DNA of 32,000 nucleotides, from assembly GCF_013177435.1 (NCBI RefSeq), contig NZ_CP053627.1:1590001-1622000 (forward strand), in the 5' to 3' direction. The notes under the pieces were generated by a model that had not been told where the DNA came from, did not search any database, and was given only the letters and a program-made list of their open reading frames with translations. Source of the DNA: Xylella taiwanensis. Its GTDB lineage: Bacteria > Pseudomonadota > Gammaproteobacteria > Xanthomonadales > Xanthomonadaceae. Positions 4,321 through 23,932 of this stretch are shown here, in pieces. How positions within the stretch are numbered: the stretch's first letter is position 1; each line of letters opens with the position of its first letter. The position numbers were made by a program, and so were the translations under genes.

Positions 4321-4580
4321 GGTGTTAGCTACCTCGCGCGTGGCAGCGCTGGCATTGCCACTGATGCCGGCGGCTAAGGCGGTAGTGATTTGCCGATAGG
4401 TGCCGCCGGGGGCCCAAGTGGCGTTGTCTTGGAGGCGTTGGTGTAGGGCCGCGATTAGGGCCGGGTCACGTTGGTGTTCGGGTTTGGCGCGTTCGCTGTC
4501 TAGGGCCTGTTGGGTTTGGGTGGCTTCTTGAGCGCGGTTGTTAATAAAGGTGCCGACTTCGCGCTGTAGGCCGCTGACGA

Positions 4581-4820
4581 CGTTTTATGACTTCCCGCTT
4601 TATATCCCGGCAGGGTTGATTTTAGATTTAAACCAAAAATAACCCATTGATGATTTAGGCGAGGCGACCCAAACACACCCTACTTTATTCAACAGCCTTG
4701 AATAAAACACCTTGATGGGTATTCACCGTCACACCCGCACCGGCACCGCCCCCTTGGGGACGCGGTACCGGTGCAGCAACACCACTCACCTCAAGAGGCA
4801 GTGCAATTACTGAGGCATCA
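4581..4820 (-). repeat. Intergenic repeat, copy R2 (full length, about 240 bp)
   Basis: It starts exactly where cdiA homology (compare 7391-7410) stops. It contains the AT palindrome TTTATTCAA-CAGCC-TTGAATAAA (4684-4706) and an imperfect GC hairpin (4737-4774). Confidence 0.85.
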
Positions 4821-5213
4821 TCAAAAAGCCCACTCGTAATCATCCTCATCAGGTTCTCCTTCTATTTCGGTTTTAAACAACCAGGCTGCGACAAATGGAC
4901 ACTCCTCCATCACTAACCACAGTCCTTCCTTTAGTCCTTCATCCGACGCAGGAAAATATTGTCTGAACAGCTCCACTAGCTCCTCGGTGGGACCCTGCAT
5001 AATACGCTCGTCCTTTCTATGACCAAGCTTGAAACGACCTCCATCAAGTAATTTCCTGATGATAAACAGGAAATCGTTTTTTCTTTCCTCAAATGAGTCC
5101 GGATCTACTTGATCAGCAAAAACTCCATGCGCCTCCGTTACATAATCCCAAAGGAAATGCAAAGGCTCTCCTTCACTGTCACAAATAAAATCTATCTGCT
5201 CTTGGGTTAACAT
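4821..5213 (-). CDS. CDI immunity protein, family A (ImmA)
   Basis: The ATG at 5211-5213 gives MLTQEQIDFICDSEGEPLHFLW.... A GAGGTG-type Shine-Dalgarno-like sequence overlaps the stop of the upstream toxin stub. Confidence 0.8.
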   Translation of the reverse strand: MLTQEQIDFICDSEGEPLHFLWDYVTEAHGVFADQVDPDSFEERKNDFLFIIRKLLDGGRFKLGHRKDERIMQGPTEELVELFRQYFPASDEGLKEGLWLVMEECPFVAAWLFKTEIEGEPDEDDYEWAF

Positions 5214-5224
5214 CACATCACCTC

Positions 5225-5554
5225 TCACCTAAATTTAAGTTCAACTGTTTTATTTGTAATCTCCATCAAAGAAGGATTCTTCTCTATATCAATCGTCCAC
5301 CTCGCTCCGGTTTCTTTTTGTGAAGAAGAAACGGACCTCAAACGCACACTGGTTCCATCACTGAGTTTAGCCAGATAAACCCCTGGGCTGACCTGCTTTA
5401 AAGGCACATCTCCGGCCAATTGCTGCGCATAGTTTTTAATATCCTGATCAGTTAAGGCCTCTGATTTAAACACCTTCACATGACCCGCTTTATTACTTCC
5501 CCCTCTCACTTTGGGGTCATACGGGGTGGCTTTGAACTCCACGCCTGCAATCAC
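5225..5554 (-). pseudogene. Family-A toxin stub (last roughly 105 codons only)
   Basis: The frame opens immediately after an in-frame TGA (..TGA GTG ATT GCA GGC GTG GAG TTC AAA..). Homology to full-length family-A toxins begins at ..GVEFKATPYDPKV. No pretoxin or delivery region is present. Confidence 0.75.
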
Positions 5555-5618
5555 TCATTCATAATTAAGCTGATTTAACTAGCCGCTGGTAACATCATGT
5601 CATCAGCGGCCTTGATGC

Positions 5619-6044
5619 TCATCCAAACAAATTGCGCAAGGATTCATTAATCTCATCCCCGGTGATGACTTCATCGGACTCTTCGTAATCCTCGGGCTTG
5701 TTGTAGTCAAATTCGATATTGAACTTAACTTGACCGGATTCAGCATTGGGACGAATAGTACATGTCAAACCCCAGATACGATCTCCAGTGAACTTCATAA
5801 GTTCATCCCTAATATAAAAAACAGCATCGGCAGCACGACAACGAAAATCCTTAGACCCACCAATCCATTTCTCATCCACACGCCCGTCTTTTACTAACCA
5901 CCATTCAGATGAAACCATTTTAGAAAAAACACCATATTTACCCACCACTTCATCCCAAGCGCGCTCGCCTGGAAATGCCATCACATCATCTGCAATGGCC
6001 TGATACGCTTCTTCGACATTTTGAAATTCAAATTCGCTATTCAT
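5619..6044 (-). CDS. Immunity protein for the His-Me nuclease CT (ImmN, 141 aa)
   Basis: Its ATG overlaps the toxin stop (ATGA at 6041-6044). It is a small acidic protein with a paralog at 27457-27894 and a remnant at 24873-24939. The layout is reminiscent of YezG/EsaG-type nuclease immunity proteins, but I did not verify that. Confidence 0.7.
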   Translation of the reverse strand: MNSEFEFQNVEEAYQAIADDVMAFPGERAWDEVVGKYGVFSKMVSSEWWLVKDGRVDEKWIGGSKDFRCRAADAVFYIRDELMKFTGDRIWGLTCTIRPNAESGQVKFNIEFDYNKPEDYEESDEVITGDEINESLRNLFG

Positions 6045-8989
6045 TGATTAAATATCCTTACAAATTCTTTACCATCAATCGTTGCTTCAACGACAAACTT
6101 ATTCGGTCTCACGCCACCAGTGGCCGGATAACCCAGATCGATTTTGACACTCACGGACTTACCGTCATGCAATGCTTGATGAAAATGATGTTCCATTTTT
6201 CTCCAATCGGTTCTGTTCAAAATCTGTGCTTGGGGCACGAGATTGATCCTATCACCGGCTCCGCCTAGGCTGGAGGCAATCAAATGCCCGCCTTCATCGC
6301 CCAGTTCGCCACACTTACCCATACAGCGTTGCTGGTAGGTATTGCGATCCATCTTTTTTGAAATCAAATCTGCTTGCACATTTTTTACTCGGCCTGCTGT
6401 GTCTGTCACATACCCATGACCGTTATCCAACACATAGGCTGTCTTAGGTTCCAGAGAACCATTGACCGCTTTATCCCAACCAGTGTTCTTGCTGCCTGTG
6501 GTGATTTGTTTGACCTGGCTGACATCGGCCCGCTTGGCTAACTGATCAGTCAATGCCTGACGCCGGGCGACAACATCGGTTGCACCGGAGATCCAGCGAC
6601 CGCCGATTTTGGCCGCTCTCACGCCGTATTTGGCCAGGTTGCCGATCATCACCGAGGCGATGTATTCCTCGCCTTTTTCTAGGGCCACTTGTTCTATGGT
6701 CTTTTCCCCTGAACGAATCGCTTTGATGTCTTGCCAGGCGTCATAGGCGGTCAGGCCTTTATCGGCTAACCAAAGGGCACCAATGAGCACGGGGACGAAG
6801 ACCGCGTTGTTTTCGGTTTCCAGCCGGGCTGCTGCACTGCTCACCGCCGCTTCGCCACCGGCGGCGGCGGTGATGCCGGCCACCAGGCTGGTGACGGTAT
6901 CGGTGCGCTGTTGTTTTTCCGCGGCGCTCAGGCTGGCAACGTCGGCGCCGGTGGCGCGGTCTAGTAGGTTATTGATGACCACGGCCGCCGCCGCGCCAGT
7001 GGCGCCGGCGCCGCACCCTTGGCCTTGGGCGGCAGCACCAGCGCAGCCCAGCAGGCCTTGCAGGGCCGCACGGGCCGGTTCGCTGTCTAGTTGGTCGGCC
7101 AGTGTTTTGACTTGGCTGGCGCCTAGGCTTTGCAGGTAGTTAACCGCAGCGCCTTGAAGCATTTGGGTGGCGCTGCCGGTCACGTGGCTGCCTGCGGCCA
7201 GGTTCAGGGCGGTCACAATCGTTCTGCCGGTGCCGCCTACGTCCCAGGTGGCGTTGTCTTGGAGGCGCTGTTGTAGGGCCGCGATTAGGGCCGGGTCACG
7301 TTGGTGTTCGGGTTTGGCGCGTTCGCTGTCTAGGGCCTGTTGGGTTTGGGTGGCTTCTTGAGCGCGGTTGTTAATAAAGGTGCCGACTTCGCGCTGTAGG
7401 CCGCTGACGATGGTAAAGCCGGCTTTGATCTCTTGTTCGTTGAAGATCGGCTGCAGGGTGTGGCTGGTGTCTTGGCCGGTGAGCACGTCGTGGTTGAGGG
7501 CGGCGATGGTCTCGGCGGCGGTCTGCCCGGTGCGGGCCTGTTGGCCGGCTTGGTCACGGATGGTGATGGCGCCAGCGCTGATGCCGCTTTGGGTGGTGCT
7601 GTGGCTGGCGTCGCGGGCGTTGATGACGCCGGGGGGAGCCACGCTCACGCCGTGATAGCCCGGCAGTTGGGTGCCAGGCACCTGTTCTGCGGTGGCGGCG
7701 CGGCCTTGTTGGTCGGTCCCCACGCCGCCGGGGCCACGGCTGTAGCCGCCGCCTAGGCTCACGTGGCTGGCGCTGTAGGAGGCGTGGTTGTCCAGCGCTG
7801 TTTCGCTCAGGGTGGCGGTGTCCAGGGCGTTTAGGCCCGCTTGGGCGGCGGCGGCGCTGGAGGTGATCAGGCCACCCATCAGGGTGGTGTGCCCGCCCAC
7901 GGTCACTTGAAAGCCCCCATCACCAGCCAGCAGGCCGCTTTGTTCGGTAACGCTGCTGTAGTCGCTGCGGATGGTGTGATGGTTGAGGTGGGCGCTGCCA
8001 GAAACACCAACCCCAGCGGTGAAGCTGCCGCCGATGCTTTGATCTTTGCTGCGGTACTGGTGGGTGTCTTGGAGGCTTTCGATGTCTAGGTTGCCGCCAA
8101 TGGTGGCCATCAGCTGGGGGGCGCTGGCCACGGCGCCGCGTAGGATGGTGTTGCCCCCAGATTCCAGCACCAGCAAGCGACCGCCCTGCACGCGGGTGTT
8201 GGTCCAGGTGACATCGGTACTGGCGCCGCTGCCTTTGGAGGCGCTGCCCTGGACGGTGAGGCCGGCGCTGGCGCCGCCGGTGCCCAGGTTCACCGCCACT
8301 CCCACGCCGTGACCGCTGCCGCGGCTGTCGCGGGTCATCTGTTCGGTGTTTTTGGCCGCCGCCATGACAAGGTCGCCATCGGCTTTGAGGTGGGTGACGT
8401 TGCCAGCGCTGATCTGGGTGCCGCTCAGGGTCAGGGTGGACTGTTCACCGGCGCCAGTGGCGCTGATGGTGATGTTGCCGCCGGCGTGGAGGGTGGATGC
8501 AACGGCGCGGTCGCTGTGGGTGGTGGTGGTGCTGTGGTATTGGGTGGTGCCCAGGGTCGCCGTGAGGTTTACGCCGCCCAGGACCTTGGGGTCGCTGCCG
8601 ATGGCATCTACGGCGTTTCTGGCGGCCAGGGCGGCGGTGATTCCCGCTAGGGCCTGGAGGCGGGGGGTGGAGGTCCGCCCGGCGGCCGCTGTCATGTGCT
8701 GGGTGGTTTGGAAGGCCGCAATCGCTGGATTGCTCAGGCTCGCGGTCAGGCCGCTTTGGCGAAACTTAGTTTCCTGAGTGGTGTGCTCGGTCTCACGGGC
8801 TTCGACAATGGCTACTTTTTTGCCGTGGATGTCAATGTTGCCTTCCGGGGCAATCAGGTCGATGCCAGGGGCCTGGACGGCGCCTTTGCTGGAGGAGATG
8901 AAGATGTTGCCATTGAGGGCGGCCACGGTGTTGCCCGACCCTAGGGCGGCGGTGTTGGTTTCGCCCACGGCCACGGTGGCCATGTCCAT
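6041..8989 (-). CDS. Large orphan cdiA 3' fragment (982 codons): FHA-2-type repeats, pretoxin region (ETENN at 6806-6823) and a His-Me (EssD/YeeF-like, Endonuclease_NS_2-type) nuclease CT
   Basis: The N-terminus MDMATVAVGETNTAALGSGNTVAALNGNIFISSSKGAVQAPGIDLIA matches two separate stretches of the main cdiA. The C-terminus carries ..GDEGGHLIASSLGGAGDRINLVPQAQILNRTDW... (the DxGHLIA..GG....N..PQ...N motif). There is no signal peptide or TPS domain. Confidence 0.85.
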   Translation of the reverse strand: MDMATVAVGETNTAALGSGNTVAALNGNIFISSSKGAVQAPGIDLIAPEGNIDIHGKKVAIVEARETEHTTQETKFRQSGLTASLSNPAIAAFQTTQHMTAAAGRTSTPRLQALAGITAALAARNAVDAIGSDPKVLGGVNLTATLGTTQYHSTTTTHSDRAVASTLHAGGNITISATGAGEQSTLTLSGTQISAGNVTHLKADGDLVMAAAKNTEQMTRDSRGSGHGVGVAVNLGTGGASAGLTVQGSASKGSGASTDVTWTNTRVQGGRLLVLESGGNTILRGAVASAPQLMATIGGNLDIESLQDTHQYRSKDQSIGGSFTAGVGVSGSAHLNHHTIRSDYSSVTEQSGLLAGDGGFQVTVGGHTTLMGGLITSSAAAAQAGLNALDTATLSETALDNHASYSASHVSLGGGYSRGPGGVGTDQQGRAATAEQVPGTQLPGYHGVSVAPPGVINARDASHSTTQSGISAGAITIRDQAGQQARTGQTAAETIAALNHDVLTGQDTSHTLQPIFNEQEIKAGFTIVSGLQREVGTFINNRAQEATQTQQALDSERAKPEHQRDPALIAALQQRLQDNATWDVGGTGRTIVTALNLAAGSHVTGSATQMLQGAAVNYLQSLGASQVKTLADQLDSEPARAALQGLLGCAGAAAQGQGCGAGATGAAAAVVINNLLDRATGADVASLSAAEKQQRTDTVTSLVAGITAAAGGEAAVSSAAARLETENNAVFVPVLIGALWLADKGLTAYDAWQDIKAIRSGEKTIEQVALEKGEEYIASVMIGNLAKYGVRAAKIGGRWISGATDVVARRQALTDQLAKRADVSQVKQITTGSKNTGWDKAVNGSLEPKTAYVLDNGHGYVTDTAGRVKNVQADLISKKMDRNTYQQRCMGKCGELGDEGGHLIASSLGGAGDRINLVPQAQILNRTDWRKMEHHFHQALHDGKSVSVKIDLGYPATGGVRPNKFVVEATIDGKEFVRIFNQ

Positions 8990-9028
8990 ATCACTGTCAT
9001 CGCCCGGCCTAAGGCATCACACCGGCGC

Positions 9029-9844
9029 TCACTGCTTTTGGATGACCACCGATTGCAAGATGCCGTCCATCAGCTTGCGGGCGCGTTGGTAATCCTCGGT
9101 GTTCTGTTGCCGCGCGGCTTCAATAAAGTTGAAGTTGACGGTGATGTAGTAGCCGCTGTCGCCAATGGGGGTCATCCAGGTTTCTACGCCATCGCCGACC
9201 GGCGTTGGGATACGTGCCCGGTACCAGGTCCAGGCGTTACCCCAGCGGGTTTCGGTCCGCGGGGCCTCCAAGAAAGCGCGATTGGACGGGCGACCCTGAT
9301 AGGACTCATTGATCAAATCCGTCACCCTTTGAACCTTTGTCTGGATACTTTCGCTGGCCGTGCTACGGATCCCAAAGTTAATGTCGTTGCGCCCCGCAAA
9401 CTCTGCATCGCACAACGCATTGAACTCCACCCCGGCGACTTGCTTTTTGACCGTGCCATCGGGCTGGGGGGTGCTTCTGTAATACGGGTAGCCGATGAAA
9501 TGGGCATATTTTCTAGCAACCATTGGCGGACCATCTCCAATGCTGGCCACGATTCCTGGGACATCTTCTCCATTACTACGCCGCTCCATCACCATCTGGA
9601 CATTGTCCGGCGGCGAGCTGGGGTAACAGCGGAAGATATTGATGCCCTTGATAAAGGCGTGTTTGACCGTGTATTGGCCTAAAAAATCCACCTTGAAGGA
9701 TTCCAGGCTCAGGTCGCGGTTCTCCCAGGGGCCGGCCAGCATCGGTTTGCCGGTGCGGGAGTCGATACGGGGGCCGGGGCCGCTGCATGCCAGCAGTACG
9801 CTGCTGGCAAGTATCAGGACACCTAGCTTGATGCGGCGGTGCAT
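9029..9844 (-). CDS. Tandem lipoprotein paralog E (candidate lipase immunity protein)
   Basis: It has a signal peptide with a lipobox: MHRRIKLGVLILASSVLLAC|SG. The ORF track starts at GTG 9862, overlapping the previous stop. The ATG (MH..) start is conserved in all five copies. This is unit 5 of an 830-bp periodic array. Confidence 0.8.
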   Translation of the reverse strand: MHRRIKLGVLILASSVLLACSGPGPRIDSRTGKPMLAGPWENRDLSLESFKVDFLGQYTVKHAFIKGINIFRCYPSSPPDNVQMVMERRSNGEDVPGIVASIGDGPPMVARKYAHFIGYPYYRSTPQPDGTVKKQVAGVEFNALCDAEFAGRNDINFGIRSTASESIQTKVQRVTDLINESYQGRPSNRAFLEAPRTETRWGNAWTWYRARIPTPVGDGVETWMTPIGDSGYYITVNFNFIEAARQQNTEDYQRARKLMDGILQSVVIQKQ

Positions 9845-9858
9845 GGACATTACCGCGC

Positions 9859-10674
9859 TCACTGTTTTTGGATGAGCACCGATTGCAAGATGCCGTCCAT
9901 CAGCTTGCGGGCACGTTGGTAATCCTCGGTGTTCTGTTGCCGCGCGGCTTCGATAAAGTTGAAGTTGACGGTGATGTAATAGCCGCTGTCGCCAATGGGG
10001 GTCATCCAGGTTTCCACGCCATCGCCGACCGGCGTTGGGATACGTGCCCGGTACCAGGTCCAGGCGTTACCCCAGCGGGTTTCGGTGCGTGGGAGCTCCA
10101 AAAAATTCGAGTTGGAAGGGCGACCCTGATAGGACTCATTGATCAAATCCGTCACCCTTTGAACCTTTGTCTGGATACTTTCGCTGGCCGCGCTACGGAT
10201 ACCAAAGTTAATGTCGTTGCGCCCCGCAAACTCTGCATCGCACAACTCACTAAACCTCACTCCGGCGACTTGCTTTTTCACCGTGCCATCGGGCTGGGGG
10301 GTGCTTCTGTAATACGGGTAGCCGATGACATGGGCATATTTTCCAGCAACCATCGGTGGGCCACCTCCAATGCTGGCCACGATTCCTGGGTTACTGGAGC
10401 CATCTCGATATGACTTCATCACTACCTGCACATTGTCCGGCGGCGAGCCTTGGTAACAGCGGAAGATATTGATGCCATTGATAAAGGCGTGTTTGACCGT
10501 GTATTGGCCTAAAAAATCCACCTTAAAATATTCCAGGCTCAGGTCGCGGTTCTCCCAGGGGCCGGCCAGCATCGGTTTGCCGGTGCGGGAGTCGATGACG
10601 GGGCCGGGGCCGCTGCATGCCAGCAGCAGGCTGCTGGCAAGTATCAGGACACCTAGCTTGATGCATATGTGCAT
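9859..10674 (-). CDS. Tandem lipoprotein paralog D (candidate lipase immunity protein)
   Basis: It has the same architecture with lipobox LLLACSG. It differs from its neighbours in discrete patches (..KSYRDGSSNPGIVASIGGGPPMVAGKYAHV.., ..VRFSEL..). Confidence 0.8.
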   Translation of the reverse strand: MHICIKLGVLILASSLLLACSGPGPVIDSRTGKPMLAGPWENRDLSLEYFKVDFLGQYTVKHAFINGINIFRCYQGSPPDNVQVVMKSYRDGSSNPGIVASIGGGPPMVAGKYAHVIGYPYYRSTPQPDGTVKKQVAGVRFSELCDAEFAGRNDINFGIRSAASESIQTKVQRVTDLINESYQGRPSNSNFLELPRTETRWGNAWTWYRARIPTPVGDGVETWMTPIGDSGYYITVNFNFIEAARQQNTEDYQRARKLMDGILQSVLIQKQ

Positions 10675-10688
10675 GGGGATTACCGAGC

Positions 10689-11504
10689 TCACTGTTTTTG
10701 GATGAGCATCGATTGCAAGATGCCGTCCATCAGCTTGCGGGCGCGTTGGTAATCCTCGGTGTTTTGTTGCCGCGCGGCTTCAATAAAGTTGAAGTTGACG
10801 GTGATGTAGTAGCCGCTGTCGCCAATGGGGGTCATCCAGGTTTCCACGCCATCACCCACCGGCGTTGGCATATACGCTCGGTACCAGGTCCAGGCGTTGC
10901 CCCAGCGGGTTTCGGTGCGTGGGGGCTCTAAAAAACGATTGGACTTGTAAGCACGATCAGGAGCACTGACCCGTGCAACCATTCTTTGGACATGCGTCTG
11001 GATACTTTCGCTGGCCGTGCTACGGATCCCAAAGTTAATGTCGTTGCGCCCCGCAAACTCTGCATCGCACAACGCATTGAACTCCACCCCGGCGACTTGC
11101 TTTTTCACCGTGCCATCGGGCTGGGGGGTGCTTCTGTAATACGGGTAGCCGATGAAATAGGCATATTTATCAGCAGGACGAGGAGGTCGTTTACCGTAAC
11201 CGTCTGACACAATCCCCGGATTACTGGAACCATTGCGAAAAGACATCATCACTACCTGCACATTGTCCGGCGGCGAGCCGGGGTAACAGCGTTTGATATT
11301 GATGCCATTGATAAAGGCGTGTTTGACCGTGTATTGGCCTAAAAAATCCACCTTAAAATATTCCAGGCTCAGGTCGCGGTTCTCCCAGGGGCCGGCCAGC
11401 ATCGGTTTGCCGGTGCGGGAATCGATGACGGGGCCGGGGCCGCTGCATGCCAGCAGTACGCTGCTGGCAAGTATCAGGACACCTAGCTTGATGCGGCTGT
11501 GCAT
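10689..11504 (-). CDS. Tandem lipoprotein paralog C (candidate lipase immunity protein)
   Basis: It has the same architecture. Its variant patches are ..MSFRNGSSNPGIVSDGYGKRPPRPADKYAYF.. and ..THVQRMVARVSAPDRAYKSNRFLEPP... Confidence 0.8.
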   Translation of the reverse strand: MHSRIKLGVLILASSVLLACSGPGPVIDSRTGKPMLAGPWENRDLSLEYFKVDFLGQYTVKHAFINGINIKRCYPGSPPDNVQVVMMSFRNGSSNPGIVSDGYGKRPPRPADKYAYFIGYPYYRSTPQPDGTVKKQVAGVEFNALCDAEFAGRNDINFGIRSTASESIQTHVQRMVARVSAPDRAYKSNRFLEPPRTETRWGNAWTWYRAYMPTPVGDGVETWMTPIGDSGYYITVNFNFIEAARQQNTEDYQRARKLMDGILQSMLIQKQ

Positions 11505-11518
11505 GGGGATTACCGCGC

Positions 11519-12337
11519 TCACTGCTTTTGGATGACCACCGATTGCAAGATGCCGTCCATCAGCTTGCGGGCACGTTGGTAATCCTCGGTGTTCTGTTGC
11601 CGCGCGGCTTCAATAAAGTTGAAGTTGACGGTGATGTAATAGCCGCTGTCGCCAATGGGGGTCATCCAGGTTTCCACGCCATCACCCACCGGCGTTGGGA
11701 TACGTGCCCGGTACCAGGTCCAGGCGTTACCCCAGCGGGTTTCGGTCCGCGGGGCCTCCAAAAAAGCGCGATTGGACGGGCGACCCTGATAGGACTCATT
11801 GATCAAATCCGTCACCCTTTGAACCTTTGTCTGGATACTTTCGCTGGCCGTGCTACGGATCCCAAAGTTAATGTCGTTGCGCCCCGCAAACTCTGCATCG
11901 CACAACGCATTGAACTCCACCCCGGCGACTTGCTTTTTCACCGTGCCATCGGGCTGGGGGGTGCTTCTGTAATACGGGTAGCCGATGAAATGGGCATACA
12001 TTGGATATGCCTGAGGAGGCCGTTTACCGTAGCTGTCTGACACAATCGCCGGGACATCTTCGCCATTACTACGCCGATACATCACCACCTGCACATTGTC
12101 CGGCGGCGAGCCGGGGTAACAGCGGAAGATATTGATGCCATTGATAAAGGCGTGTTTGACCGTGTATTGGCCTAAAAAATCCACCTTGAAATATTCCAGG
12201 CTCAGGTCGCGGTTCTCCCAGGGGCCGGCCAGCATCGGTTTGCCGGTGCGGGAATCGATGACGGGGCCGGGGCCGCTGCATGCCAGCAGTACGCTGCTGG
12301 CAAGTATCAGGACACCTAGCTTGATGCGGCGGTGCAT
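11519..12337 (-). CDS. Tandem lipoprotein paralog B (candidate lipase immunity protein)
   Basis: It has the same architecture. Its variant patch ..YRRSNGEDVPAIVSDSYGKRPPQAYPMYAHF.. makes it one codon longer. Confidence 0.8.
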   Translation of the reverse strand: MHRRIKLGVLILASSVLLACSGPGPVIDSRTGKPMLAGPWENRDLSLEYFKVDFLGQYTVKHAFINGINIFRCYPGSPPDNVQVVMYRRSNGEDVPAIVSDSYGKRPPQAYPMYAHFIGYPYYRSTPQPDGTVKKQVAGVEFNALCDAEFAGRNDINFGIRSTASESIQTKVQRVTDLINESYQGRPSNRAFLEAPRTETRWGNAWTWYRARIPTPVGDGVETWMTPIGDSGYYITVNFNFIEAARQQNTEDYQRARKLMDGILQSVVIQKQ

Positions 12338-12351
12338 GGACATTACCGCGC

Positions 12352-13164
12352 TCACTGCTTTTGGATGAGCACCGATTGCAAGATGCCGTCCATCAGCTTG
12401 CGGGCACGTTGGTAATCCTCGGTGTTCTGTTGCCGCGCGGCTTCAATAAAGTTGAAGTTGACGGTGATGTAGTAGCCGCTGTCGCCGATGGGAGTCATCC
12501 AGGTTTCCACGCCATCACCCACCGGCGTTGGCATATACGCTCGGTACCAGGTCCAGGCGTTGCCCCAGCGGGTTTCGGTGCGTGGGGGCTCTAAAAAACG
12601 ATTGGACTTGTAAGCACGATCAGGAGCACTGACCCGTGCAACCATTCTTTGGACATGCGTCTGGATACTTTCGCTGGCGGCGCTACGGATCCCAAAGTTA
12701 ATGTCGTTGCGCCCCGCAAACTCTGCATCGCACAACTCACTAAACCTCACCCCGGCGACTTGCTTTTTCACCGTGCCATCGGGCTGGGGGGTGTTTCTGT
12801 AATACGGGTAGCCGATGAAATGGGCATATTTTCTAGCAACCATTGGCGGACCATCTCCAATGCTGGCCACGATTCCTGGGACATCTTCTCCATTACTACG
12901 CCGCTCCATCACCATCTGGACATTGTCCGGCGGCGAGCTGGGGTAACAGCGGAAGATATTGATGCCATTGATAAAGGCGTGTTTGACCGTGTATTGGCCT
13001 AAAAAATCCACCTTGAAGGATTCCAGGCTCAGGTCGCGGTTCTCCCAGGGGCCGGCCAGCATCGGTTTGCCGGTGCGGGAGTCGATACGGGGGCCGGGTC
13101 CGCTGCATGCCAGCAGTACGCTGCTGGCAAGTATCAGGACACCTATCTTGATGCGGCTGTGCAT
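12352..13164 (-). CDS. Tandem lipoprotein paralog A (candidate lipase immunity protein), first gene after cdiA
   Basis: The ATG at 13162-13164 (MHSRIKIGVLILASSVLLACSG) lies 5 nt after the cdiA TAA (13170-13172). The 71-codon upstream extension in the ORF track overlaps cdiA and is not conserved in the other copies. Confidence 0.8.
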   Translation of the reverse strand: MHSRIKIGVLILASSVLLACSGPGPRIDSRTGKPMLAGPWENRDLSLESFKVDFLGQYTVKHAFINGINIFRCYPSSPPDNVQMVMERRSNGEDVPGIVASIGDGPPMVARKYAHFIGYPYYRNTPQPDGTVKKQVAGVRFSELCDAEFAGRNDINFGIRSAASESIQTHVQRMVARVSAPDRAYKSNRFLEPPRTETRWGNAWTWYRAYMPTPVGDGVETWMTPIGDSGYYITVNFNFIEAARQQNTEDYQRARKLMDGILQSVLIQKQ

Positions 13165-13169
13165 GGGGA

Positions 13170-16100
13170 TTACTCCGCGGGGGTGAGCTGTTGGCGCAAC
13201 TGCTGCAGTTGCTGTTGGCGGGAGGTGCCGGTTGGGGGCGATGCAGGGGTGAAGGGTGTCAGCATGCCTGGGGTGCCATCGAGCTGCTGTTGCCAGTAGG
13301 CCGATTGATCCAGGAGGCGTTGCAACTGGGCCAGTTGGGTGGCGACGGGGTCCTCCGGACGCCGCACCGCCTGCCATTGCTGCAGCGCTGCCATGGTCTG
13401 ATCGTGACGCTTACGGTTCATCTCATCGATATCCAGGCCGGCATAGCTGAACACCCCTTCAGGATTGACGTTGTCCGGATGGCTGCCCAGGGCGGCGGTG
13501 CCGCCGCTGCTGTGCACCGAGTAGTTGGTCTCAAAGATCTCCCGCAGGTCCTTCAAACCCGCGGTCCCCGGATAGCCACCAATAATATGGGCGACAAAGT
13601 CATTGGGCGGTGACCAGAAGCCGGGTTTATTTTTAGTAACCTGCCCCGCGACCGCCGTCAGACGGCTCTCTTCAGCCGCGGGGTTGTTGACGAAGATCTT
13701 TAATTCATCGCTCTTCACCCCAAGTGCTGCGAGCACATTGAGCGCCCCGGTTTCAGTCATGGTGCCACGGCTATGACCCACAAAATTTACCGGGTTGGTG
13801 TACTGTTTATCCGCTTCGTTATACATCAACGTCTCCGCCACCTGGGCCTGGAGCCGTGAGGCCGGGCTGACCACGCGCCCATTGCTGACCTCCATCAGCT
13901 TCTCCAGGCCGGCCACGATCAGTTCCCCCACAGTATGGGTGGGCTGGGTATGCACCACGTAGGTGGTGTTAACGTAGGTTTCGCCGGTGTCCTGGATATT
14001 TCCCTTATTCCTGTCCCACGGCGTCATTTGCAAGCCTAGTTCCGCAGCGCGGCGCAACAAGTTGCTGATGCCGTTGCCGAACACGGTGCTGTTTTTCTTC
14101 TCTTCGTCCGCCAGGGCGCGCAGCGCATCCAAGGTCACCGGGATCGCTTGGATATTGGCTACGCCGCCGGTCAGGGCCCAGCGGCTTTGGTCGGTGAGCA
14201 GGTCATCGTTGGGGCCGCGGGTGCCGGCGATGAACTCGGCGACTTTGGTCGCGTCCAAGGTGCGGTTGGCGTCGTGGATGGTGTCTGTCAGGTCGTTGAC
14301 GGCCTGCTCGCGGAGGCGTTTGTCCGACCAGCCCGGATGGGCTTGCCGCAGGGCGGCGGTGCGTTCTTCCACCAATGTGTTGTTGGCTGCATGGTCGTTG
14401 GTGCAGGGTTGGCTGACGCAGAACACCTTCTCAAGGGTCGGGCTGAGGATGTTGCTGAGGCCTTGGTCAATCAGGATGCGGCCGCTGTCGGCCAGTAAGG
14501 CGCCGGCCTGGCTGCGGTGCTGTACGTCAGCCTGCAAGGTGCCCAGGTCGGTGGCCGCCAGAGGGGTGTGGGCCCCATCCGGGTCACGGCGCAGGGTCGC
14601 CAGGGGGGCGGGATCGCCGCCGCGCAGCACGATGTTAGCCGCGCTCACCACCGCTTCGGTAGTGCTGCGGTCGTTGACCTGACGATCAGCGCTGCCCATG
14701 TGTTGACCAATCAGGGTTCTGCCGAGGCTGTAGATCGGAAGCTGGCTGTTGCCCTGGGAGAGGCCGCTGACCAGGTCGCTGCTCAGGGTGAAGCCGGAGG
14801 CACTCGCACCGGCATTGTGGTGGTTGTCCACGGTGCTGTGGCCCATGCTCTGGGTGGAGAGCTTTTGCAATGCCTGAGGGGCGCTGCTGACGATGGCGCC
14901 GCCGTCCAGTTGGGTATGGCCGCCCACGTGGATGGTGTAGCCGCCGGCGCCGGCAAATAGGCCGCTTTGGTCACGCACGCTGGCGTAGTCCTGGGTGGCG
15001 TGTTGATTGGCATGGCTGAAGGTGGCGTTGCTGCCAAGCCCGCTCATGACCAAGGTGGCGCCGGCGCTGTTTTGGCGCTGTTGGGAGCTGGCACGCAGGG
15101 TGTCCTGGCGGCTTTCGATGTCTAGGTTGCCGCCAATGGTGCCGTTGATGCTATCGGCTAAGACATGGGCGCCACGCAGTTGCGCGTTGCCACCGGCGTT
15201 GAGGGTGGCATTGCCACTGACCCGGATGGCGGTGTCCACCTGGGTGACAGACTGCTGACTGGACTGGCCTCTGCCCCGGGCGCCGCCGGCGTTGAGACTG
15301 GGGCTGGAGGAGCCCACGTTCCATTGGGCACCCACGCTGCTGCTGCTGTAGCGTTGGCTGGAGGTGTGCTCTTGGGTGCTCTGGGCGCTGTGCAGAATGA
15401 GGTCACCAGCCGCATTGAAGGCCAGGCTACCGCTGCTAATCTGGGCACCAACGGCGCTGAGTTGCCCGGTGCCCTCTTGGCGCTCGCCTTTTTCATTGTG
15501 GATGCCAAAGGCGGTGACGGAGACTTTGCCGCCGGCGCGTAGTTGGGCACCGCGGGCCGTGGTGGCGGTCATGCTGGTCTGGCTTTGGCTGGTGGTGCTG
15601 CCGAAAGAGACGCCGCCGCCGAAGGTGTGGGGTATGCCGCCTTCGCGCAGGGTCTTGATTTCGTCCAGGGCACGATCACCGGCACTGAAGGCGCTGTTGA
15701 GGGCGCGTACGCCGTACAGCGTGCTGAGTTGTCCCGTCGGGGCATGGCGGGCGTTTCTAATGTCGGCGGGCACGGCCTGGGCGAAGGTGCCCAGGGCGCT
15801 GCTGAAGCCAACGCTAAAGCCGCTGTGTTTGCTGGCCTGCTGCTGTTGAGCGCTGGCGGTGTCGTACACCGGGTCCATGGTGACGTTGACGCCGCTGACG
15901 TTGATGTTGCCGGCGGCAATCAGGTCGATGCCAGGGGCCTGGACGGCGCCTTTGCTGGAGTGGATGAGGATGTTGCCATTGAGGGCGGCCACGGTGTTGC
16001 CGGTCAAGTAGGTGGCGTGGTGGCTGCCTTGTTGGCTGGCTTTTTGGGAGCCCACGGTGAAGCCGGCGCCAGAACCGAACACGCCGCTGCGGCGCTGGGT

Positions 16101-19100
16101 GGTGCTGTAGCTGGAGCTGTGGGTGTTTTGGGCGCCGAACATGCCCACGCCGTGGGTGCCTTCAATGTGGGGGTTGCCATCGGCTATAAAGTCGGTGCCA
16201 ACGCTGTAAACCTTGTCGCCTGTGACGGTGACCTTGGTGCCGCCCAGGACGCTGCCCAGGGCAATGGTGTCTTGGCTGCTGGCGGTGCTGTGGCTACGGC
16301 TGGAGCCCCATAGGCCGCTGCGCCGGCTGGTGCGTTCTTCTTGGCCGCTGCGCCGTTCTTGGCCGGCCACCAGGGCCACGGTGCCGTCAGCAGAACTGAT
16401 GTTCAGCTTGCCTTGGCGGCTGTCCAGGGTCACGGCACGCCCGATGACGCCACCCTCGCCTTTGATGGTGACGTTGCCAGTGCCAGTAATACGGGTGCCT
16501 ACTTCGCTGTCGCGGGTGCTGTGGATGCTGTTGCCCGGTCCTAGGGTGGCGGTGTTGGTTTCGCCCACGGCCACGGTGGCCATGTTGAGTTTGCCGGCGG
16601 CGGTGACGCTGCTGGTGCCGCCCGGGCCGGTGTTGCTGAAAGTGACGCCTTGCAGGGTCATGTCTTTGTCGGAAGTCACGTGCAGGGTGCCGCCGGGGCC
16701 GGTGACGCGAAAGGTCGATGGACGGTCGATTTCGGTGCGGCTGAAGTGACGTTGGCCTGAGGTACTGTAGCCGCGTGTGGTGCTGCGGGCTATCAGGCCG
16801 CCAGCGGCGGTGACATCCAGTGAACTGCGGGCGCTGAATGTGCCGCCAATGTCGGTGAGGGTGTCTTTGGTATGCACTTTGACGTGGTCGGCGTCCATCT
16901 GGCCGCCTTCTTGGTGGATGTTGTCCGCGTCAATCGTGAGGCGGTCGCGCCCGGTGAGGGTGCCGGTGTTGGTGAGGGTGCCCGATAGGTCCATGGTGAG
17001 GCGGGCACCGGCCATGAGGGCGCCGTCGGTCTTCAGGTCCCCGCGGCGCGGGCGTAGGTAGACACGGGGCACCAGGGCGGTGGTGCTGGTGCCGTTGGGC
17101 AGGGTGACGGGTTGTTCCACCAGCCAGACGATGTCGCTGGTGAGTTGGGCCATTTGGTCAGCGCTCAGGGCGATGCCGGGGCGTAGGCCGTAGTGCTGGG
17201 CAACGGTGACGCCGGCGTCCAGCAGGGCGCGGTATTGTTGGTCGTCGTTGGCGTAGCCGTCCAGCAAGCGCCGCCCGGTGAGTTGGGCGATTTGTTCGCG
17301 GATCAGGCGTTGTTCGTAAAAGCCGTCGCCAAGGCGTTTGTGCATGCTGGCCAGGGGGTCGTTCAGGGCCTGAAGTTGTCGGTCGGCGGTGGTCCGGTCG
17401 CTGCCGCCGCTAAAGTGTGGGTCGGTGACGATGAGGCTGGCGGCGTCGGGATGGACGGTAAACAGGCGGTTGTTGGGCAGGATCAGGGGGCCAGGAACGG
17501 TGGTCGCGGTGGCCCAGGACGGGGCAGCCACGCTGATCGGGGCGTTGTCGGTGTGCAGGGTCGGTAGGCGGGCGTCCGCCAGGTCCTGCAGGGTGGTGTC
17601 GGGGATGGTCAGCGGGAGCTGGCTCTCCACGGATAAGGCGGGCTCCTCGGCAGACTGGTCCGTGCTCGGAGCCGGGGTGAGCTCGGGCATCAGCGGCATC
17701 GGGGGGCTGGTGTGCAGGTCGCCCAGGGGCGGGTGTTCGACGTGGGTGGTGGTATGCAGGGATTGCAGGCGGTTGTTGACATCCACGGCGGCGATGTATT
17801 GGTGGCCGCCGCTGGTGATGCGCCCGCCAATTTGGCCGATGGTGTAGCGCTGGGACGGCATGGTCCAGGTCTCGGCGGCGCCGGCGTAGGTGTAGCTGAT
17901 GTTGTTGAACTGCGTGGTGCGCGACAGTTCAGCAGTGAGGTTGTCGATGAGGCTGGCTTTGCTGTACTCCGGGGCTTTTTCGGGGTCCTTGGGCGGGTGT
18001 GGCGGCAGGCCAACGATGGTCTGGTCGCCACCGGCAAGGATGTCGGCGTAGTGGTTGGCCAGGCGGTCGACCTGGACGAACATGGCGCCGCCAGATTGGA
18101 TCAGCGCCGCGGCGCCGACGCCCGGTTGCAGGATGTCGTCGACGGTGGTCTTGGTGGCGTGGCGGTACTGTTCGTTGGTTTTGACATCCGTGGGGCCGCG
18201 GCGCATGTGGGTCAGGGTGTGGTCCGGGTCGGTGTAGTCACGCCAGGTGATCAGCCGGACGCAGTCGGTACGGCAGGTGCCGTAGGCCGGGTCGTAGGTC
18301 AGGACTTCGTCTTGGTAGGTGATGTGGACGTCTTGTTGGCGTTCGTTTTTTTGGGGGGTGTCCAGGCCGGCCCAGGCGCTGCCCTGCCGGGCGGCGCTTT
18401 GGACTTGGTCGGGGTTGGGTTGTTGGTCTTGGCGGTCGGTGTAGTACAGCACGACGATGCCTTCGCGCTGGCTCAGGTCCAGGCGCTGGCGTTGGCCGCG
18501 GGCGGCATACAGGCCGCCGCGGGCATACAGGTAGGCGCTGGTCTGCGGGGTCAGGCGCACCACGGCGCGGTGGATGATGTAGCCGTCCGGGGTGGTATAG
18601 GGTTCGTCTTGGAGGATGTCGTTGGGGTTGAGGTAGTAGATCTCGTGGGCGTCGTAGTTGCTGGTGAGAGTGAAGTCCGCGTCATTGTTGCGTTGGTTGT
18701 CGCGCCAGGCCGGTTGGGACATGCGTACGGTGGTGCTCACGCCGGGCGCCTGGGTGAGGTGGACGTTGTCGCGGATGTTGTTGAGGGTGGTGGTGGTGAT
18801 GTCCAAGGCGCCGTCCACGTCAATGGTGGCGCTGCGGTTGTCCAGCAGGGTGGCGCTGCCGGTGGCGTGGCGATCGCTATCCAAGGTGCCGCCAATGGCG
18901 GCATCGCCGGCGCTGTAGATCAGGGCGGCGCCGCTGTTACGCACGGTGGCCGCGCCAATGTCCAGGCGTTCGCGGGCGGCAATGGTGGCGGCGTGGGTCT
19001 GGCCGGCGGTGGATTCATCGCGGTTGGTGAGGGTCTGGGCCTGGAGGGCGAGGTGGTCGCCGTAGAGGCGCGCGGTGCCAATGTTGTCGAGGGTGGCGGC

Positions 19101-22100
19101 CTGGAGGTGGGTGGTGGCCGCATCAATCAGGCCGCGGTTGCTCAGGGTCGCAGTGGCGGTCAGTTGGGCCTGGCCGCTGGCGGTGATTTGGCCGGTGGCA
19201 GCGTTGTCAATGGTGCGGGCCTGCAGGGTCAGGTCGCCGGTGTGCAGCAGGCCGGCGTTGCTGAAGGTGTCCGCGGCGCTGAGCTGGGCTTGGCCGCTGG
19301 CAAGGATCTGGGCGGCGGCAGCGTTATCGATGCGCTGGGCGTGCAGGGTCAGGTCACGGCCCTGAAGCAGGCCGCTGTTGCTCAGGGTCGCGGTGGCGGT
19401 GAGTTGGGCTTGGCCGCTGGCAGCCATCTGCCCGGTGGCCACGTTATCGATGCGCTGGGCCTGCAGGGTCAGGTCACGGCCCTGAAGCAGGCCGCTGTTG
19501 CTCAGGGTCTCGGTCGCGGTGAGTTGGGCCTGGCCGCTGGCAGCCATCTGCCCGGTGGCCACGTTATCGATGTTCTGGGCGTGCAGGGTCAGGTCACGGC
19601 CCTGAAGCAGGCCGCTGTTGGTGAGGGTCTCGGTCGCGGTGAGTTGGGCTTGGCCGCTGGCAGTCATCTGCCCGGTGGCAGCGTTGTCAATGGTGCGGGC
19701 CTGCAGGGTCAGGTCGCCGGTGTGCAGCAGGCCAGCGTTGCTGAAGGTGTCCGCGGCGCTGAGCTGGGCTTGGCCGCTGGCAGCCATCTGCCCGGTGGCA
19801 GCGTTGTCAATGCGCTGGGCGTGCAGGGTCAGGTCGCCGGTGTGCAGCAGGCCGGCGTTGCTGAAGGTGTCCGCGGCGCTGAGCTGGGCTTGGCCGCTGG
19901 CAGCCATCTGCCCGGTGGCCACGTTATCGATGCGCTGGGCGTGCAGGGTCAGGTCCGCCGCCTGGATAAGGCCGCGGTTGTGCAGGGCCCCGGCGGTACG
20001 CACGGTGAGCAGGCCGGCGGCGCTGAGGGTGCCGCCGTTGTCCAGACCTTCCTGCAGGGCCAGGGTCAGGGCGGTGCCAGCATGCAGCAGGCCGGCGCCG
20101 CTGAAGGCGCTCAGGTGCAGGCTTTGGGCGCCGCCACTCAGCAGGGTGCCGGCTTGGTTGGTCAGTTGGGCGGCACTCAGCTGTAGGGTGCCGCCGGCAG
20201 TGAGGCGTCCGGCGGTGTTCTGCAGGGCGCCGCGTAGGGTCAGGGCGATGTCTTGGGCAGCGCTGAGGTGGCCATCGCGGTTATCCAGGGTGGTGCTGTC
20301 GATCTGCAGGTGGGTGGCGTGCAGGCCGGTGGCCGGGGCGGCGGTGTCACGGGGGCGGGAGCCAGGGTCCGGGGCCGCAGGGGTCGTTCGGTTGTCCAGG
20401 GTGGTGGTGGTGATCGCCAGGGCCCCGGCGGCGCTGATCAGGCCGTCGTGGTTGTCCAGGCGGTTGTCTAGGTGCAGGCGCGCATCCGCGCCGCTGTGCA
20501 GGCGTCCGCCGGTGTTGCTCAGGGTGTGGGCGTCGATCTGGAGACCGTTGGCGCCGCCAAGTTGGCCGCCAGCGGTGTTGTCAATGTGGGTGCTGTGCAG
20601 CTGGGTGGCGGCTTGGGAGAATACTTGGCCGCCGTGGTTGTTTAGGGTGGCGCTGCGCAGGTCGAGGGCGCCGCCAGCCAGTAGGGCGCCGCCGGCGCTG
20701 TTGTCCAGAAGGTGCGGGCCGGTGTCGATGCGCAGGGCAGTGGCCGCTTGCACCAGGCCGGCACGGTTGTCTAGGACGCCGCTGTGCAGGGTCACGGTGC
20801 CGCTGGTGCTGCCCAGGCGGCCACCGCGGTTGTCCAAGGGTTGGTTTTGGGTGTACAGGGTCACTTGGGCGCCGCTCAGGGTGCCGGCGCGGTTGGTCAG
20901 GCCGGCGCTGCTGAGCCAGAGGGCTTCGCGACTCTGCAGCAGGCCGGCGCTGTTGTCCAGCAGGCCGCTCAGGTGCAGCTGCGCTGCGCCGGCCGCGTCC
21001 AGGGTGCCGTGTTGGTTGAACACGGTGGCCGCGCTCAGGCGCAGGTCTTGGCCGCTGGACAGGGTGCCGTTGTCTTGGTTGTTGAGGGTGCCAGTAACGT
21101 GCAGGTCCAGCAGACCGGTGGCGGTGTGCAGGACGCCGCCGCGGTTGTCCAGGGTGCTGGCGTGCAGGGTGCCAGGGCCGCTGAGCAGCAGCTGGCCTTG
21201 GGTGTTGTCCCAGGTGCCGGTGGTCAGGGTGGCCGGGCCAGTGAGCAATAGATGGCCGCCGCGGTTGTCTAGGGCTTGGGTGGCCTCCAGGCGGCTGGCG
21301 CCGGGGCCGGTGCTGTGCAGGGTGCCGCCGCGGTTATCCAGGGTGGCGGTGTGTAGGTCCAGCACGCCGTTGGTGGCGATGCTGCCGCCACGGTTGTCCA
21401 GGCGGGTGCGGGCCTCCAGTTGGAGGGCTTGGTCTGACTGGGCGGTAAGTTGGCCGCCGGCGGTGCTGAGGACGCCGGTACGGATGCTCACGTGCTGGGC
21501 CCAGGTGGTGCCTTGGCTCAGGTCGGTCTGGGTGCCGGTGATGCTCAGGGCGCCTTGGCTGCTCAGGGTGCCGCCGGGGCCGAAAAGGGTGGCGGCGTCG
21601 ATCTGCAGGGACCCCTGCCCGCTGTGCTGTACGGTGCCGCCGCTGTTATCCAGGGTGGTGGCGTTGAGGGTGAGGGCGCTGCCGGTGCTGGATAGGGTGC
21701 CAGTGGTGTTGTCTAGCAGGCCACCAATGCGCAGGTGGGCCGCCTGGGGGCCGGTGTGGAGGAGTTGGCCGCCACGGTTGTTGAGCTGGTGGGTCTGTAG
21801 GTCCAGGGCGCCGCTGGCCTGAAGTTGGCCGGCGTCATTAGTAAGTTGCCCGGTCTGCAGGGTCAGAGCGTTAGCCGCGCTGGCCAGCACGCCGTGTTGG
21901 TTGTCCAGTAGGCCATCAATGCGCAGGTGGGCCGCCTGGGGGCCGGTGTGGAGGAATTGGCCGCCACGGTTGCTGAACTGTTGGGTGTTCAGGGCCAGGG
22001 CGCCGCTGGCCTGAAGTTGGCCGGCGTCATTAGTAAGTTGCCCGGTCTGCAGGGTCAGAGCGTTAGCCGCGCTGGCCAGCACGCCGTGTTGGTTGTCCAG

Positions 22101-23865: not shown

Positions 23866-23932
23866 CCATAGTCCTTGTGATGAGGGAGGATCCCGAACGC
23901 CCAGGTCAGGTGAGGGATGCTCCATGAGATAA

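Follow-up and report, generated by a model that had tools for sequence, protein, structure and literature searches.

Contact-dependent inhibition (CDI) loci of the canonical Escherichia coli type encode a CdiA exoprotein with ESPR, two-partner secretion (TPS), FHA-1 and FHA-2 domains and a variable C-terminal toxin, followed by an immunity gene and by orphan modules; these systems use a VENN pretoxin, a cytoplasm-entry domain, a nuclease or ionophore toxin, and a small cytosolic or membrane CdiI. The characterized CDI toxins are mostly nucleases and ionophores that require entry at the inner membrane. A locus of Xylella taiwanensis, studied here in a 32-kb window (the whole stretch of DNA analyzed, whose positions are used throughout), shares the ESPR, TPS, FHA-1 and FHA-2 domains, a variable C-terminal domain (CT), a putative immunity gene downstream, and orphan modules, but it has a C-x4-C junction in place of VENN/DUF637, a divergent FHA-2 and five lipoprotein genes, and the window lacks cdiB. 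All genes relevant to the CT/lipoprotein module are on the minus strand. We consider it probable, with appreciable room for doubt, that this region is a CDI toxin/immunity module acting on the envelope, in which the CT is a hydrolase and lipoproteins of Pfam family DUF769 provide immunity.

Two other groups of described systems invite comparison. The phospholipase effectors Tle1 to Tle4 of type VI secretion systems (T6SS), with their Tli immunity proteins, resemble the X. taiwanensis module in combining a GxSxG serine hydrolase and predicted periplasmic action with exported or lipoprotein immunity proteins that often occur as tandem paralogs. They differ in being delivered by the T6SS rather than by a TPS/CdiA filament, the CT core is much smaller (about 215 aa), and DUF769 is, as far as tested, unrelated to the known Tli families. 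Alpha/beta-hydrolase toxin domains are predicted in polymorphic toxins by Zhang et al. 2012 (PMC3482391), as Tox-ABhydrolase-1/DUF2235, -2 and -3, the last of these being closest to class-3 fungal lipases (1lgy). Tox-ABhydrolase-2 and -3 are, like the CT, predicted C-terminal alpha/beta-hydrolase domains, found in classical polymorphic toxins, and -3 shares its lipase class with the structure 1TIA matched below; compared by description only, their immunities are cytoplasmic (SUKH, Imm66, Imm69), whereas the putative ones of the CT are lipoproteins, and Imm65 is stated to be the only lipoprotein immunity of that study (PMC3482391).

Full-text literature searches found no characterized CdiA-CT with lipase or phospholipase activity, and no description of the present CT family. 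Reviews (PMC5422565 among them) treat the Xylella proteins HxfA and HxfB as CdiA-like adhesins, with CT activity unmentioned. A sequence-only reading of the window had proposed a CDI-delivered lipase followed by a periplasmic immunity array. Its coordinates and its description of CT and array proved accurate apart from three corrections, which concern a frameshift in the exoprotein, the junction motif, and the family of the lipoproteins.

The DUF769 lipoprotein array and its linkage to the C-terminal domain

The CT consists of the 402 aa that follow FCVSQPCTNDHAANN (13173-14378), including the motifs FVGHSRGT, NDFVAH and SVHSSGG. Five genes lie directly downstream.

12352..13164, minus strand: DUF769 lipoprotein gene 1, in the cdiI position, 270 aa (Pfam PF05590, E 4e-118)
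11519..12337, minus strand: DUF769 lipoprotein gene 2, 272 aa (alignment; tandem repeat)
10689..11504, minus strand: DUF769 lipoprotein gene 3, 271 aa (alignment; tandem repeat)
9859..10674, minus strand: DUF769 lipoprotein gene 4, 271 aa (alignment; tandem repeat)
9029..9844, minus strand: DUF769 lipoprotein gene 5, 271 aa (Pfam E 3e-107; AlphaFold model with predicted local distance difference test score, pLDDT, of 82)

As had been claimed from the letters alone, these are tandem genes for lipoproteins of about 271 aa with signal peptidase II (SPII) signals. They form five DNA repeats with a period of 827-833 bp over 9025-13206; the ~830-bp array exceeds the period limit of Tandem Repeats Finder and so escaped it, and a repeat search recovered it. 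Each repeat encodes a protein of 270-272 aa that starts at the conserved Met of MHxRIK; its n-region is positively charged and is followed by a hydrophobic core and the lipobox LLAC/SG. By inspection, MHRRIK-LGVLILASSVLL-AC/SG reads as an SPII lipoprotein signal. The ATG of the first gene (13164) is 5 nt past the exoprotein stop codon (13170-13172), with GGAG upstream. The repeat structure and motif conservation lie far beyond what chance could give.

The lipoprotein family had gone unrecognized in the sequence-only reading; it is the known Pfam family DUF769 (PF05590), which has no assigned function. All five proteins match it at full length (profile positions 1-259, E 1e-107 to 1e-118, 358-394 bits against a cut-off of 21), and the product of gene 5 matches an annotated DUF769 protein of X. 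taiwanensis with 100% identity across 99% of the query. In a collection of 5.8 billion proteins DUF769 is found only in Xylella, Roseateles, Ralstonia, and metagenomes. One E. coli CdiA-CT type is labeled "DUF769" in Table 2 of PMC11630599; this label was not reproduced, as DUF769 occurs in that collection only in proteins of at most 344 aa, none of them from E. coli. The same label given to the N-terminus of E. coli Usp in PMC5536347 is probably a slip for DUF796 (Hcp). Both uses disagree with PF05590 as it is encountered in the present searches.

The paralogs within the array are 84-94% identical, and their differences sit in two cassettes (residues ~91-123 and ~177-201) of which a few alternative versions are shuffled among the copies. 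The proportion of synonymous differences (pS) in the cassettes is 0.36-0.47 and that of non-synonymous differences (pN) is 0.26-0.27, against a pN of 0.02-0.05 elsewhere, where pS is low too. Because synonymous and non-synonymous divergence are both high there, the pattern indicates that the cassettes are probably old alleles swapped by recombination rather than products of recent point mutation. Two Cys residues are invariant across the DUF769 family.

The pairing of CT and lipoprotein recurs in other genomes, and this conserved linkage is, at the level of sequence comparison, the strongest evidence that the lipoproteins serve as immunity proteins. A 3277-aa hemagglutinin of X. fastidiosa (locus L034) ends in a full CT that shows 59% identity across 415 residues. 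Downstream come three alternations of a DUF769 gene with a 5'-truncated orphan CT, then a fourth DUF769 gene and DUF596 immunity genes. In another X. fastidiosa strain a 3480-aa hemagglutinin is followed by the same alternation, which closes with two adjacent DUF769 genes. These X. fastidiosa hemagglutinins (3277-3480 aa), which are of the HxfA/HxfB type and may include HxfA or HxfB themselves, likewise precede DUF769 arrays, in which DUF769 genes mostly alternate with orphan CTs, whereas in X. taiwanensis the five are contiguous and the orphan CTs are missing. The lipobox reads LLLAGC/SS in X. fastidiosa and AGC/A in the Roseateles and Zoogloea copies.

Outside Xylella, CTs of Roseateles and Zoogloea (45-49% identity) have DUF769 downstream (the complete genes that were scanned match Pfam at E 1e-27 to 1e-30), in five tandem copies in one Roseateles species, in a single copy in Zoogloea oryzae, and as one complete gene plus DUF769-like fragments in a second Roseateles species. 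In these free-living Burkholderiales DUF769 occupies the cdiI position with start/stop coupling. Ralstonia solanacearum has a DUF769 gene at the far end of a CDI locus, directly after a remnant that matches the CT tail only. One metagenome-assembled genome (MAG) encodes a CdiA with a different toxin, then an orphan in which a fragment of FHA-2 is joined to the distal CT, with one DUF769 gene; one metagenome contig has at least three tandem DUF769 genes beside an FHA-2 fragment.

A distant CT subfamily (23-32% identity) is found in cdiB-cdiA operons and in operons that run from cdiB through an outer membrane protein (OMP) gene and cdiC to cdiA, and the next gene encodes a lipoprotein of 273-318 aa. 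One of these lipoproteins (L036) is a remote DUF769 homolog (hhalign probability 96%, E 4e-9), and those of L038 and L039 share its motifs. At L036 (869-10315) the operon runs cdiB-OMP-cdiC(HlyC acyltransferase)-cdiA, a layout that has been reported for lipidated CdiA of class IV; therefore the CT family is not bound to one CdiA class. In Bartonella the CT is followed instead by unrelated lipoproteins of ~135 aa, in multiple copies and with orphan modules; these have an LxxGC lipobox and a conserved ..KALLECGMP..ACMxQAGF.. pattern, belong to no Pfam family, and look like an uncharacterized immunity family. Several Bartonella species (L008, L009, L013, L016, L025) carry many divergent GHSRG CT copies, each with ~135-aa lipoproteins after it.

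By position, by coupling, and by linkage elsewhere, then, the CT, the gene directly downstream, and the orphan modules have the arrangement expected of a CDI toxin with its putative immunity gene. The earlier proposal of a periplasmic, multi-allelic lipoprotein immunity array gains strong comparative support from the linkage in X. fastidiosa, Roseateles, Zoogloea, Ralstonia and four MAG or metagenome loci and from the substitute lipoproteins of Bartonella.

The AlphaFold model of DUF769, built from 21 sequences, has a pLDDT of 82 and a predicted TM-score of 0.77. Its PDB matches are PsbP and Mog1 (E ~1e-4), SciW/EagT6 (E 3e-3 to 1e-2) and the immunity protein Tsi3 (E 3e-2), with TM-scores on the query of 0.25-0.31 that are low because DUF769 is larger; it exceeds the PsbP/Mog1/DUF1795 (Eag) fold and Tsi3 by ~100 aa and has no sequence relationship to them. 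Taken alone, the modeled fold points to no function. The likeness of this model to PsbP/Mog1 and, more weakly, to the Eag-type T6SS chaperones SciW and EagT6 could suggest that DUF769 proteins are accessory factors (periplasmic chaperones, activators, or export helpers), while the mosaic cassettes among the five copies recall surface-antigen families and the Hxf hemagglutinins are known adhesins (PMC5422565), as would suit variable lipoproteins of adhesion or antigenic variation. Roles of this kind in place of immunity are nevertheless quite unlikely. A general chaperone need not diversify with its client, and the genomic arrangement argues for immunity: in X. fastidiosa DUF769 and the polymorphic orphan CTs alternate 1:1, and DUF769 is kept beside a degraded CT in Ralstonia, takes the coupled cdiI position in free-living Burkholderiales, and is replaced by an unrelated lipoprotein in Bartonella.

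The C-terminal domain as a candidate hydrolase

The anatomy of the CT and of its junction with the rest of the exoprotein is as follows.

14379..14423, minus strand: junction motif FCVSQPCTNDHAANN (C-x4-C), in the place of the VENN pretoxin (C-x(4-6)-C in 29/32 family members)
14109..14378, minus strand: CT residues 1-90, helical linker or N-terminal subdomain (predicted helices; conserved in the Xylella/Roseateles subfamily)
13449..14108, minus strand: CT residues 91-310, compact candidate Ser-Asp-His hydrolase core (residue invariance; PDB profile matches)
14070-14075, minus strand: Asn102-Gly103, invariant
13764-13775, minus strand: His-Ser203-Arg-Gly, invariant, predicted nucleophile elbow (Ser203 at 13770-13772)
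13599-13601, minus strand: Asp260, invariant
13512-13514, minus strand: His289, invariant
13173..13448, minus strand: CT residues 311-402, helical tail rich in Gln (18 Q in 92 aa; conserved across the Xylella/Roseateles subfamily that is linked to DUF769)

A C-terminus of about 400 aa with FVGHSRGT, downstream Asp and His candidates, and a Gln-rich tail had been described from the sequence alone, and all of these elements are borne out: 402 aa, Ser203, Asp260, His289, and the 18 Gln residues of the tail. In Ralstonia the Gln-rich tail is the sole part of the CT kept upstream of DUF769.

Close homologs of the CT in the 5.8-billion-protein collection form 30 X. fastidiosa clusters at ~60% identity, mostly of 292-aa fragments. 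A HMMER scan of 1.84 billion representatives with a Xylella profile yields 67 proteins at E <= 1e-3, and these 67 representative clusters span the beta-, gamma-, and alpha-proteobacteria. About half are proteins of 700-3900 aa with the CT at the extreme C-terminus, and many of the large ones start with the ESPR motif MNKxLYRxxFN; the ESPR/TPS proteins that end in relatives of the CT measure 1400-3900 aa. By this placement in large, often ESPR-starting proteins, as judged from profile matches, the CT is a member of a widespread CdiA-CT family that has no Pfam or NCBIfam model.

Within a core of ~215 residues, alignments of 32, 22, and 26 diverse members show Asn102-Gly103, Gln117, His202-Ser203-Arg204-Gly205, Asp260, His289, and Gly293 to be invariant. 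The candidate triad of Ser203, Asp260, and His289, invariant in 32/32, stands in the Ser-acid-His order of an alpha/beta hydrolase. The conserved blocks are, in order, strand-NGIxN-helix, IYLxH-strand, ELxVAGYEK-helix, strand-GHSRGT-helix, a further strand, NDPV, and NSxHS; our reading is that they may follow the order beta3 to beta8 in an alpha/beta hydrolase of minimal size, the nucleophile coming after beta5, the acid after beta7, and the His after beta8. In a low-confidence AlphaFold model the invariant GHSRG forms an elbow of a strand (197-202), Ser203, and a helix (205-218); pLDDT exceeds 70 only for the first ~30 CT residues.

Two family profiles were compared with all PDB sequences. 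All of the matches (9/9 and 7/7), though each is non-significant (E 0.04-1.9), are alpha/beta hydrolases aligned at the nucleophile elbow: Burkholderia/Chromobacterium lipases, fungal lipases, a putative lipase, phthalate monoester hydrolases, a CE5 esterase, the YbtT thioesterase, and a putative serine hydrolase. The top match, Penicillium camembertii lipase 1TIA/5CH8 (E = 0.047), places GHSRG on GHSLG(145) and NDPV on NDPVP(199), that is, on Ser145 and Asp199, which we take to be its catalytic Ser and Asp. Class-3 fungal-type tri- and diacylglycerol lipases (1TIA/5CH8) share with the CT the GHS-x-G elbow and an NDPV(P) Asp ~55 residues later; in the CT, the His follows 29 residues after the Asp against ~60 in these lipases, and no lid or N-terminal strands are evident. 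Pfam Tle3 (PF24322) aligns at the elbow below threshold (E 0.07-0.08, 12.8 bits against a cut-off of 27), and none of the Tle family HMMs matches significantly. An hhalign comparison of the family profile with one Abhydrolase_1 protein gave a probability of 1% with consistent topology and is not counted as evidence. In a phmmer search of PDB the CT matched nothing but cytochrome b5, spuriously and over its N-terminal linker, and tblastn of the CT against plasmids found no match.

Because of the invariant motifs, the uniformly alpha/beta-hydrolase matches in PDB, and the alignment of Ser and Asp to a class-3 lipase, the assignment of the CT as a Ser-Asp-His alpha/beta hydrolase is well supported, though indirectly, but not demonstrated. 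By analogy, lipase is the most likely specificity. The same module could have some other envelope substrate: esters or amides linked to peptidoglycan, lipoprotein acyl chains or Lpp, or the acyl chains of lipopolysaccharide or lipid A. The alpha/beta-hydrolase assignment is motif-based only, the PDB matches extend beyond lipases to esterases (a phthalate monoester hydrolase and a CE5 carbohydrate esterase) and to a thioesterase, and Zhang et al. 2012 (PMC3482391) remark that Tox-ABhydrolase-2 shows no particular affinity to lipases. We regard a substrate of this sort as unlikely. Class-3 lipases give the best alignment, one in which Ser and Asp are both covered, and a GxSxG enzyme with periplasmic lipoprotein immunity is otherwise not known at the family level outside the Tle phospholipases.

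The 3121-aa ORF that carries the CT contains no VENN, ENN, or LYN motif and has no DUF637 match in Pfam, in agreement with the earlier remark that its toxin is not delimited by VENN or ENN. A second remark, that a two-Cys pretoxin is absent, is right for the VENN type borne by the orphan toxins of the window, whose DUF637-like pretoxin (weak DUF637 matches) carries ..LLGCAGAAAQGQGCGAG.., ..GCAGAAAQGQGCGAG.. and ETENN. It misses that the exoprotein has a two-Cys motif of its own, FCVSQPC; a C-x(4-6)-C pattern stands directly upstream of the domain in 29 of the 32 diverse members, in the form FCxQxPCTND or TCPAxxxC. A (D/N)PNR motif, considered as a cleavage site, was rejected, since it is present in only ~13/32 members and is degenerate in Xylella.

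Two further positions of the CT, His+2 and His+10, co-vary across the family (Cys/Cys in 34, Ser/Ser in 36, mixed in 2). This suggests a disulfide-stapled loop after the predicted catalytic His, which would have been lost in the Xylella lineage. The Cys co-variation flanking that His, and the fact that two unrelated partner families are both lipoproteins, point to a site of action for the CT outside the cytoplasm. The two invariant Cys of DUF769 fit the same view.

The exoprotein and the flanks of the window

The exoprotein is encoded in two ORFs, and remnants of what may be its former 3' end lie beyond the lipoprotein array.

22495..23925, minus strand: N-terminal exoprotein ORF with ESPR and a domain for TPS secretion (Pfam E 1.6e-11 for ESPR and 1.6e-47 for TPS; NCBIfam adhes_NPXG)
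22510..22519: homopolymer G10 (C10 on the coding strand), where the frame changes between the TPS ORF and the body ORF (three-frame translation)
13170..22535, minus strand: CdiA-type exoprotein body, 3121 aa, with FHA-1, FHA-2, and CT toxin region (Pfam Fil_haemagg in 7 stretches, Fil_haemagg_2)
15078..15602, minus strand: FHA-2 (Fil_haemagg_2) repeat region, which travels with the hydrolase CT type (Pfam PF13332, E 2.7e-25)
6041..8989, minus strand: displaced orphan with FHA-2, VENN-type pretoxin (..ETENN), and Endonuclease_NS_2 (Pfam; BLASTP against the main protein)
5619..6044, minus strand: small gene of cytoplasmic type, placed where immunity to the orphan nuclease would be encoded, 141 aa (without signal peptide; no Pfam match)

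By its Pfam matches (ESPR/TPS, FHA-1, FHA-2) the exoprotein is a TpsA protein, with the caveat that the TPS region and the body are separated by a frameshift. The description of it as a full-length TPS exoprotein therefore holds for its domains, which are all present, and fails for its reading frame, which is split exactly at the G10 tract (22510-22519): in three-frame translation ..VEPPGSPPP is succeeded in another frame by SVAIEPPGND.., and removing one C from the tract restores the continuous reading ..VEPPGSPPPSVAIEPPGND.. Slipped-strand phase variation, decay, and an assembly error are all candidate causes of the frame break. Delivery by a CDI/TPS route, as had been proposed, is strongly supported by the ESPR, TPS, FHA-1 and FHA-2 domains and by the occurrence of distant relatives of the CT in cdiB(-cdiC)-cdiA operons. 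The compact cdiB-cdiA operons of those relatives (L036, L038) stand in contrast to the window, which has no cdiB.

The frameshift bears on a further explanation, in which the CT is a host- or surface-directed esterase, or an adhesin-processing domain, concerned with plant or insect, and the locus is a decaying pseudogene. The characterization of Xylella hemagglutinins as adhesins that affect aggregation and virulence, and the lack of a VENN cleavage motif, would fit this explanation too, but we judge it highly improbable: the same family occurs in environmental cdiBA operons, each with a dedicated lipoprotein gene after it, orphan CT/immunity modules are a hallmark of polymorphic antibacterial toxins, and effectors directed at eukaryotes are generally known to require no immunity genes.

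The FHA-2 of the main protein is only 38% identical (BLASTP) to that of the 982-aa orphan at 6041-8989, which lies downstream of the lipoprotein array, still has its FHA-2 complete, and opens with a MATVAVGETNTA segment that is also found inside the main gene. Because the two FHA-2 regions have diverged so far and the MATVAVGETNTA segment is common to both genes, the arrangement fits a history in which an incoming FHA-2/CT/DUF769 cassette replaced an older FHA-2/VENN/Endonuclease_NS_2 3' end, the old end being the displaced orphan. The shared MATVAVGETNTA segment looks like the recombination point. Unlike the lipoprotein array of the main CT, the gene at 5619-6044, which takes the immunity position beside the orphan nuclease, is of the cytoplasmic type. 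A second Endonuclease_NS_2 toxin ORF is present in the window at 27891-29066.

The flanks of the window (300-6044 and 24240-31878) consist of repeated orphan modules, each a DUF637-like pretoxin with ETENN and a variable CT, followed by DUF596 immunity genes of ~135 aa. Segments of these flanks are up to 97-99% identical to each other (e.g. 797-1096, 6574-6873, 28424-28723, and 31236-31535), and the upstream orphan array presumably belongs to another CDI locus beyond the window. Two of the DUF596 genes contain C9 tracts (G9 on the coding strand; 2948-2956 and 30680-30688) that encode Gly-Gly-Gly, potential further slippage sites.

Proposed action at the envelope

In the module that we favor, the exoprotein would be a CdiA which, on receptor binding or contact, passes its CT across the outer membrane of the target cell by means of FHA-2, the step that FHA-2 performs in the CdiA model of PMC11630599. 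Because it is without a VENN pretoxin or a recognizable cytoplasm-entry domain, the CT would stay in the periplasm, and there it would hydrolyze an envelope ester, most probably of membrane phospholipid, as the T6SS Tle lipases do. DUF769 lipoproteins, anchored on the periplasmic side, would bind and block the CT. The copy that adjoins cdiA would be the cognate immunity protein; the other four may be mosaic orphan immunity alleles that have outlasted their partner toxins and would protect against CT variants of other strains. The interleaved orphan CTs of X. fastidiosa would represent a preserved intermediate state of such an array. The C-terminal half of CdiA is held in the producer's periplasm before delivery (PMC11630599), and for this reason the lipoprotein would be expected to shield the producer, too, from its own stored toxin. 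The domain anatomy, the invariant motifs, the lipobox, the tandem array, and the conserved linkage of CT and lipoprotein are observed. The fold and substrate of the CT, its periplasmic action, and its direct binding by DUF769 are what we infer in this scheme; the central inference is supported by comparative genomics, and the enzymatic claim for the CT is plausible but unproven.

Several observations weigh against this scheme. The exoprotein is frameshifted in the assembly, so the X. taiwanensis copy may lack expression, and no cdiB (ShlB/POTRA ORF) is found anywhere in the 32-kb window. The checks suggested with the sequence-only reading succeeded for the lipoprotein, giving the DUF769 family and a PsbP/Mog1-like model, and fell short for the CT: no Pfam or NCBIfam family matched it or 17 diverse relatives, and its AlphaFold model reached a pLDDT of only 41.6, a failure that follows from the shallow input alignment of 12 Xylella-type sequences. 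Foldseek with that model gave no match at E <= 1e-3, only random Rossmann-like folds, and was discarded. None of the PDB profile matches is significant individually. The Xylella CT has Ser/Ser at the co-varying positions and is thus without the Cys pair that, in other members, argues for an oxidizing compartment. Lastly, the modeled likeness of DUF769 to Eag/SciW chaperones would also suit an accessory role.

What appears to be new here is a CT family of predicted hydrolases, unannotated and with a junction module of its own, that has putative immunity from lipoproteins of the DUF769 superfamily, often amplified into arrays; the CDI/polymorphic-toxin framework into which it falls is known. A wider reading, which we offer tentatively and to which we give slightly less than an even chance, joins these parts. 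The widespread CdiA-CT family would be a dedicated periplasmic lipolytic toxin with its own translocation module, consisting of the divergent FHA-2 and a disulfide-type C-x4-C junction and working without VENN cleavage or a cytoplasm-entry step. DUF769 outer-membrane lipoproteins would neutralize the toxin, also in the producer, the Hxf-type "antivirulence adhesins" would be inter-bacterial lipase weapons, and immunity-only arrays would be a heritable library of resistance to the alleles of neighbors.

A serine-hydrolase CT with lipoprotein immunity, if true, would add an envelope-acting class to CDI, and it prompts one to ask why a producer is not harmed by a toxin kept in the compartment where it is active. 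The CT family is now defined with 67 representative clusters that no Pfam or NCBIfam model matches. The analysis also provides a testable function for Pfam DUF769 and for the C-termini of the large hemagglutinins of Xylella, a quarantine plant pathogen, proteins that are now discussed only as adhesins.

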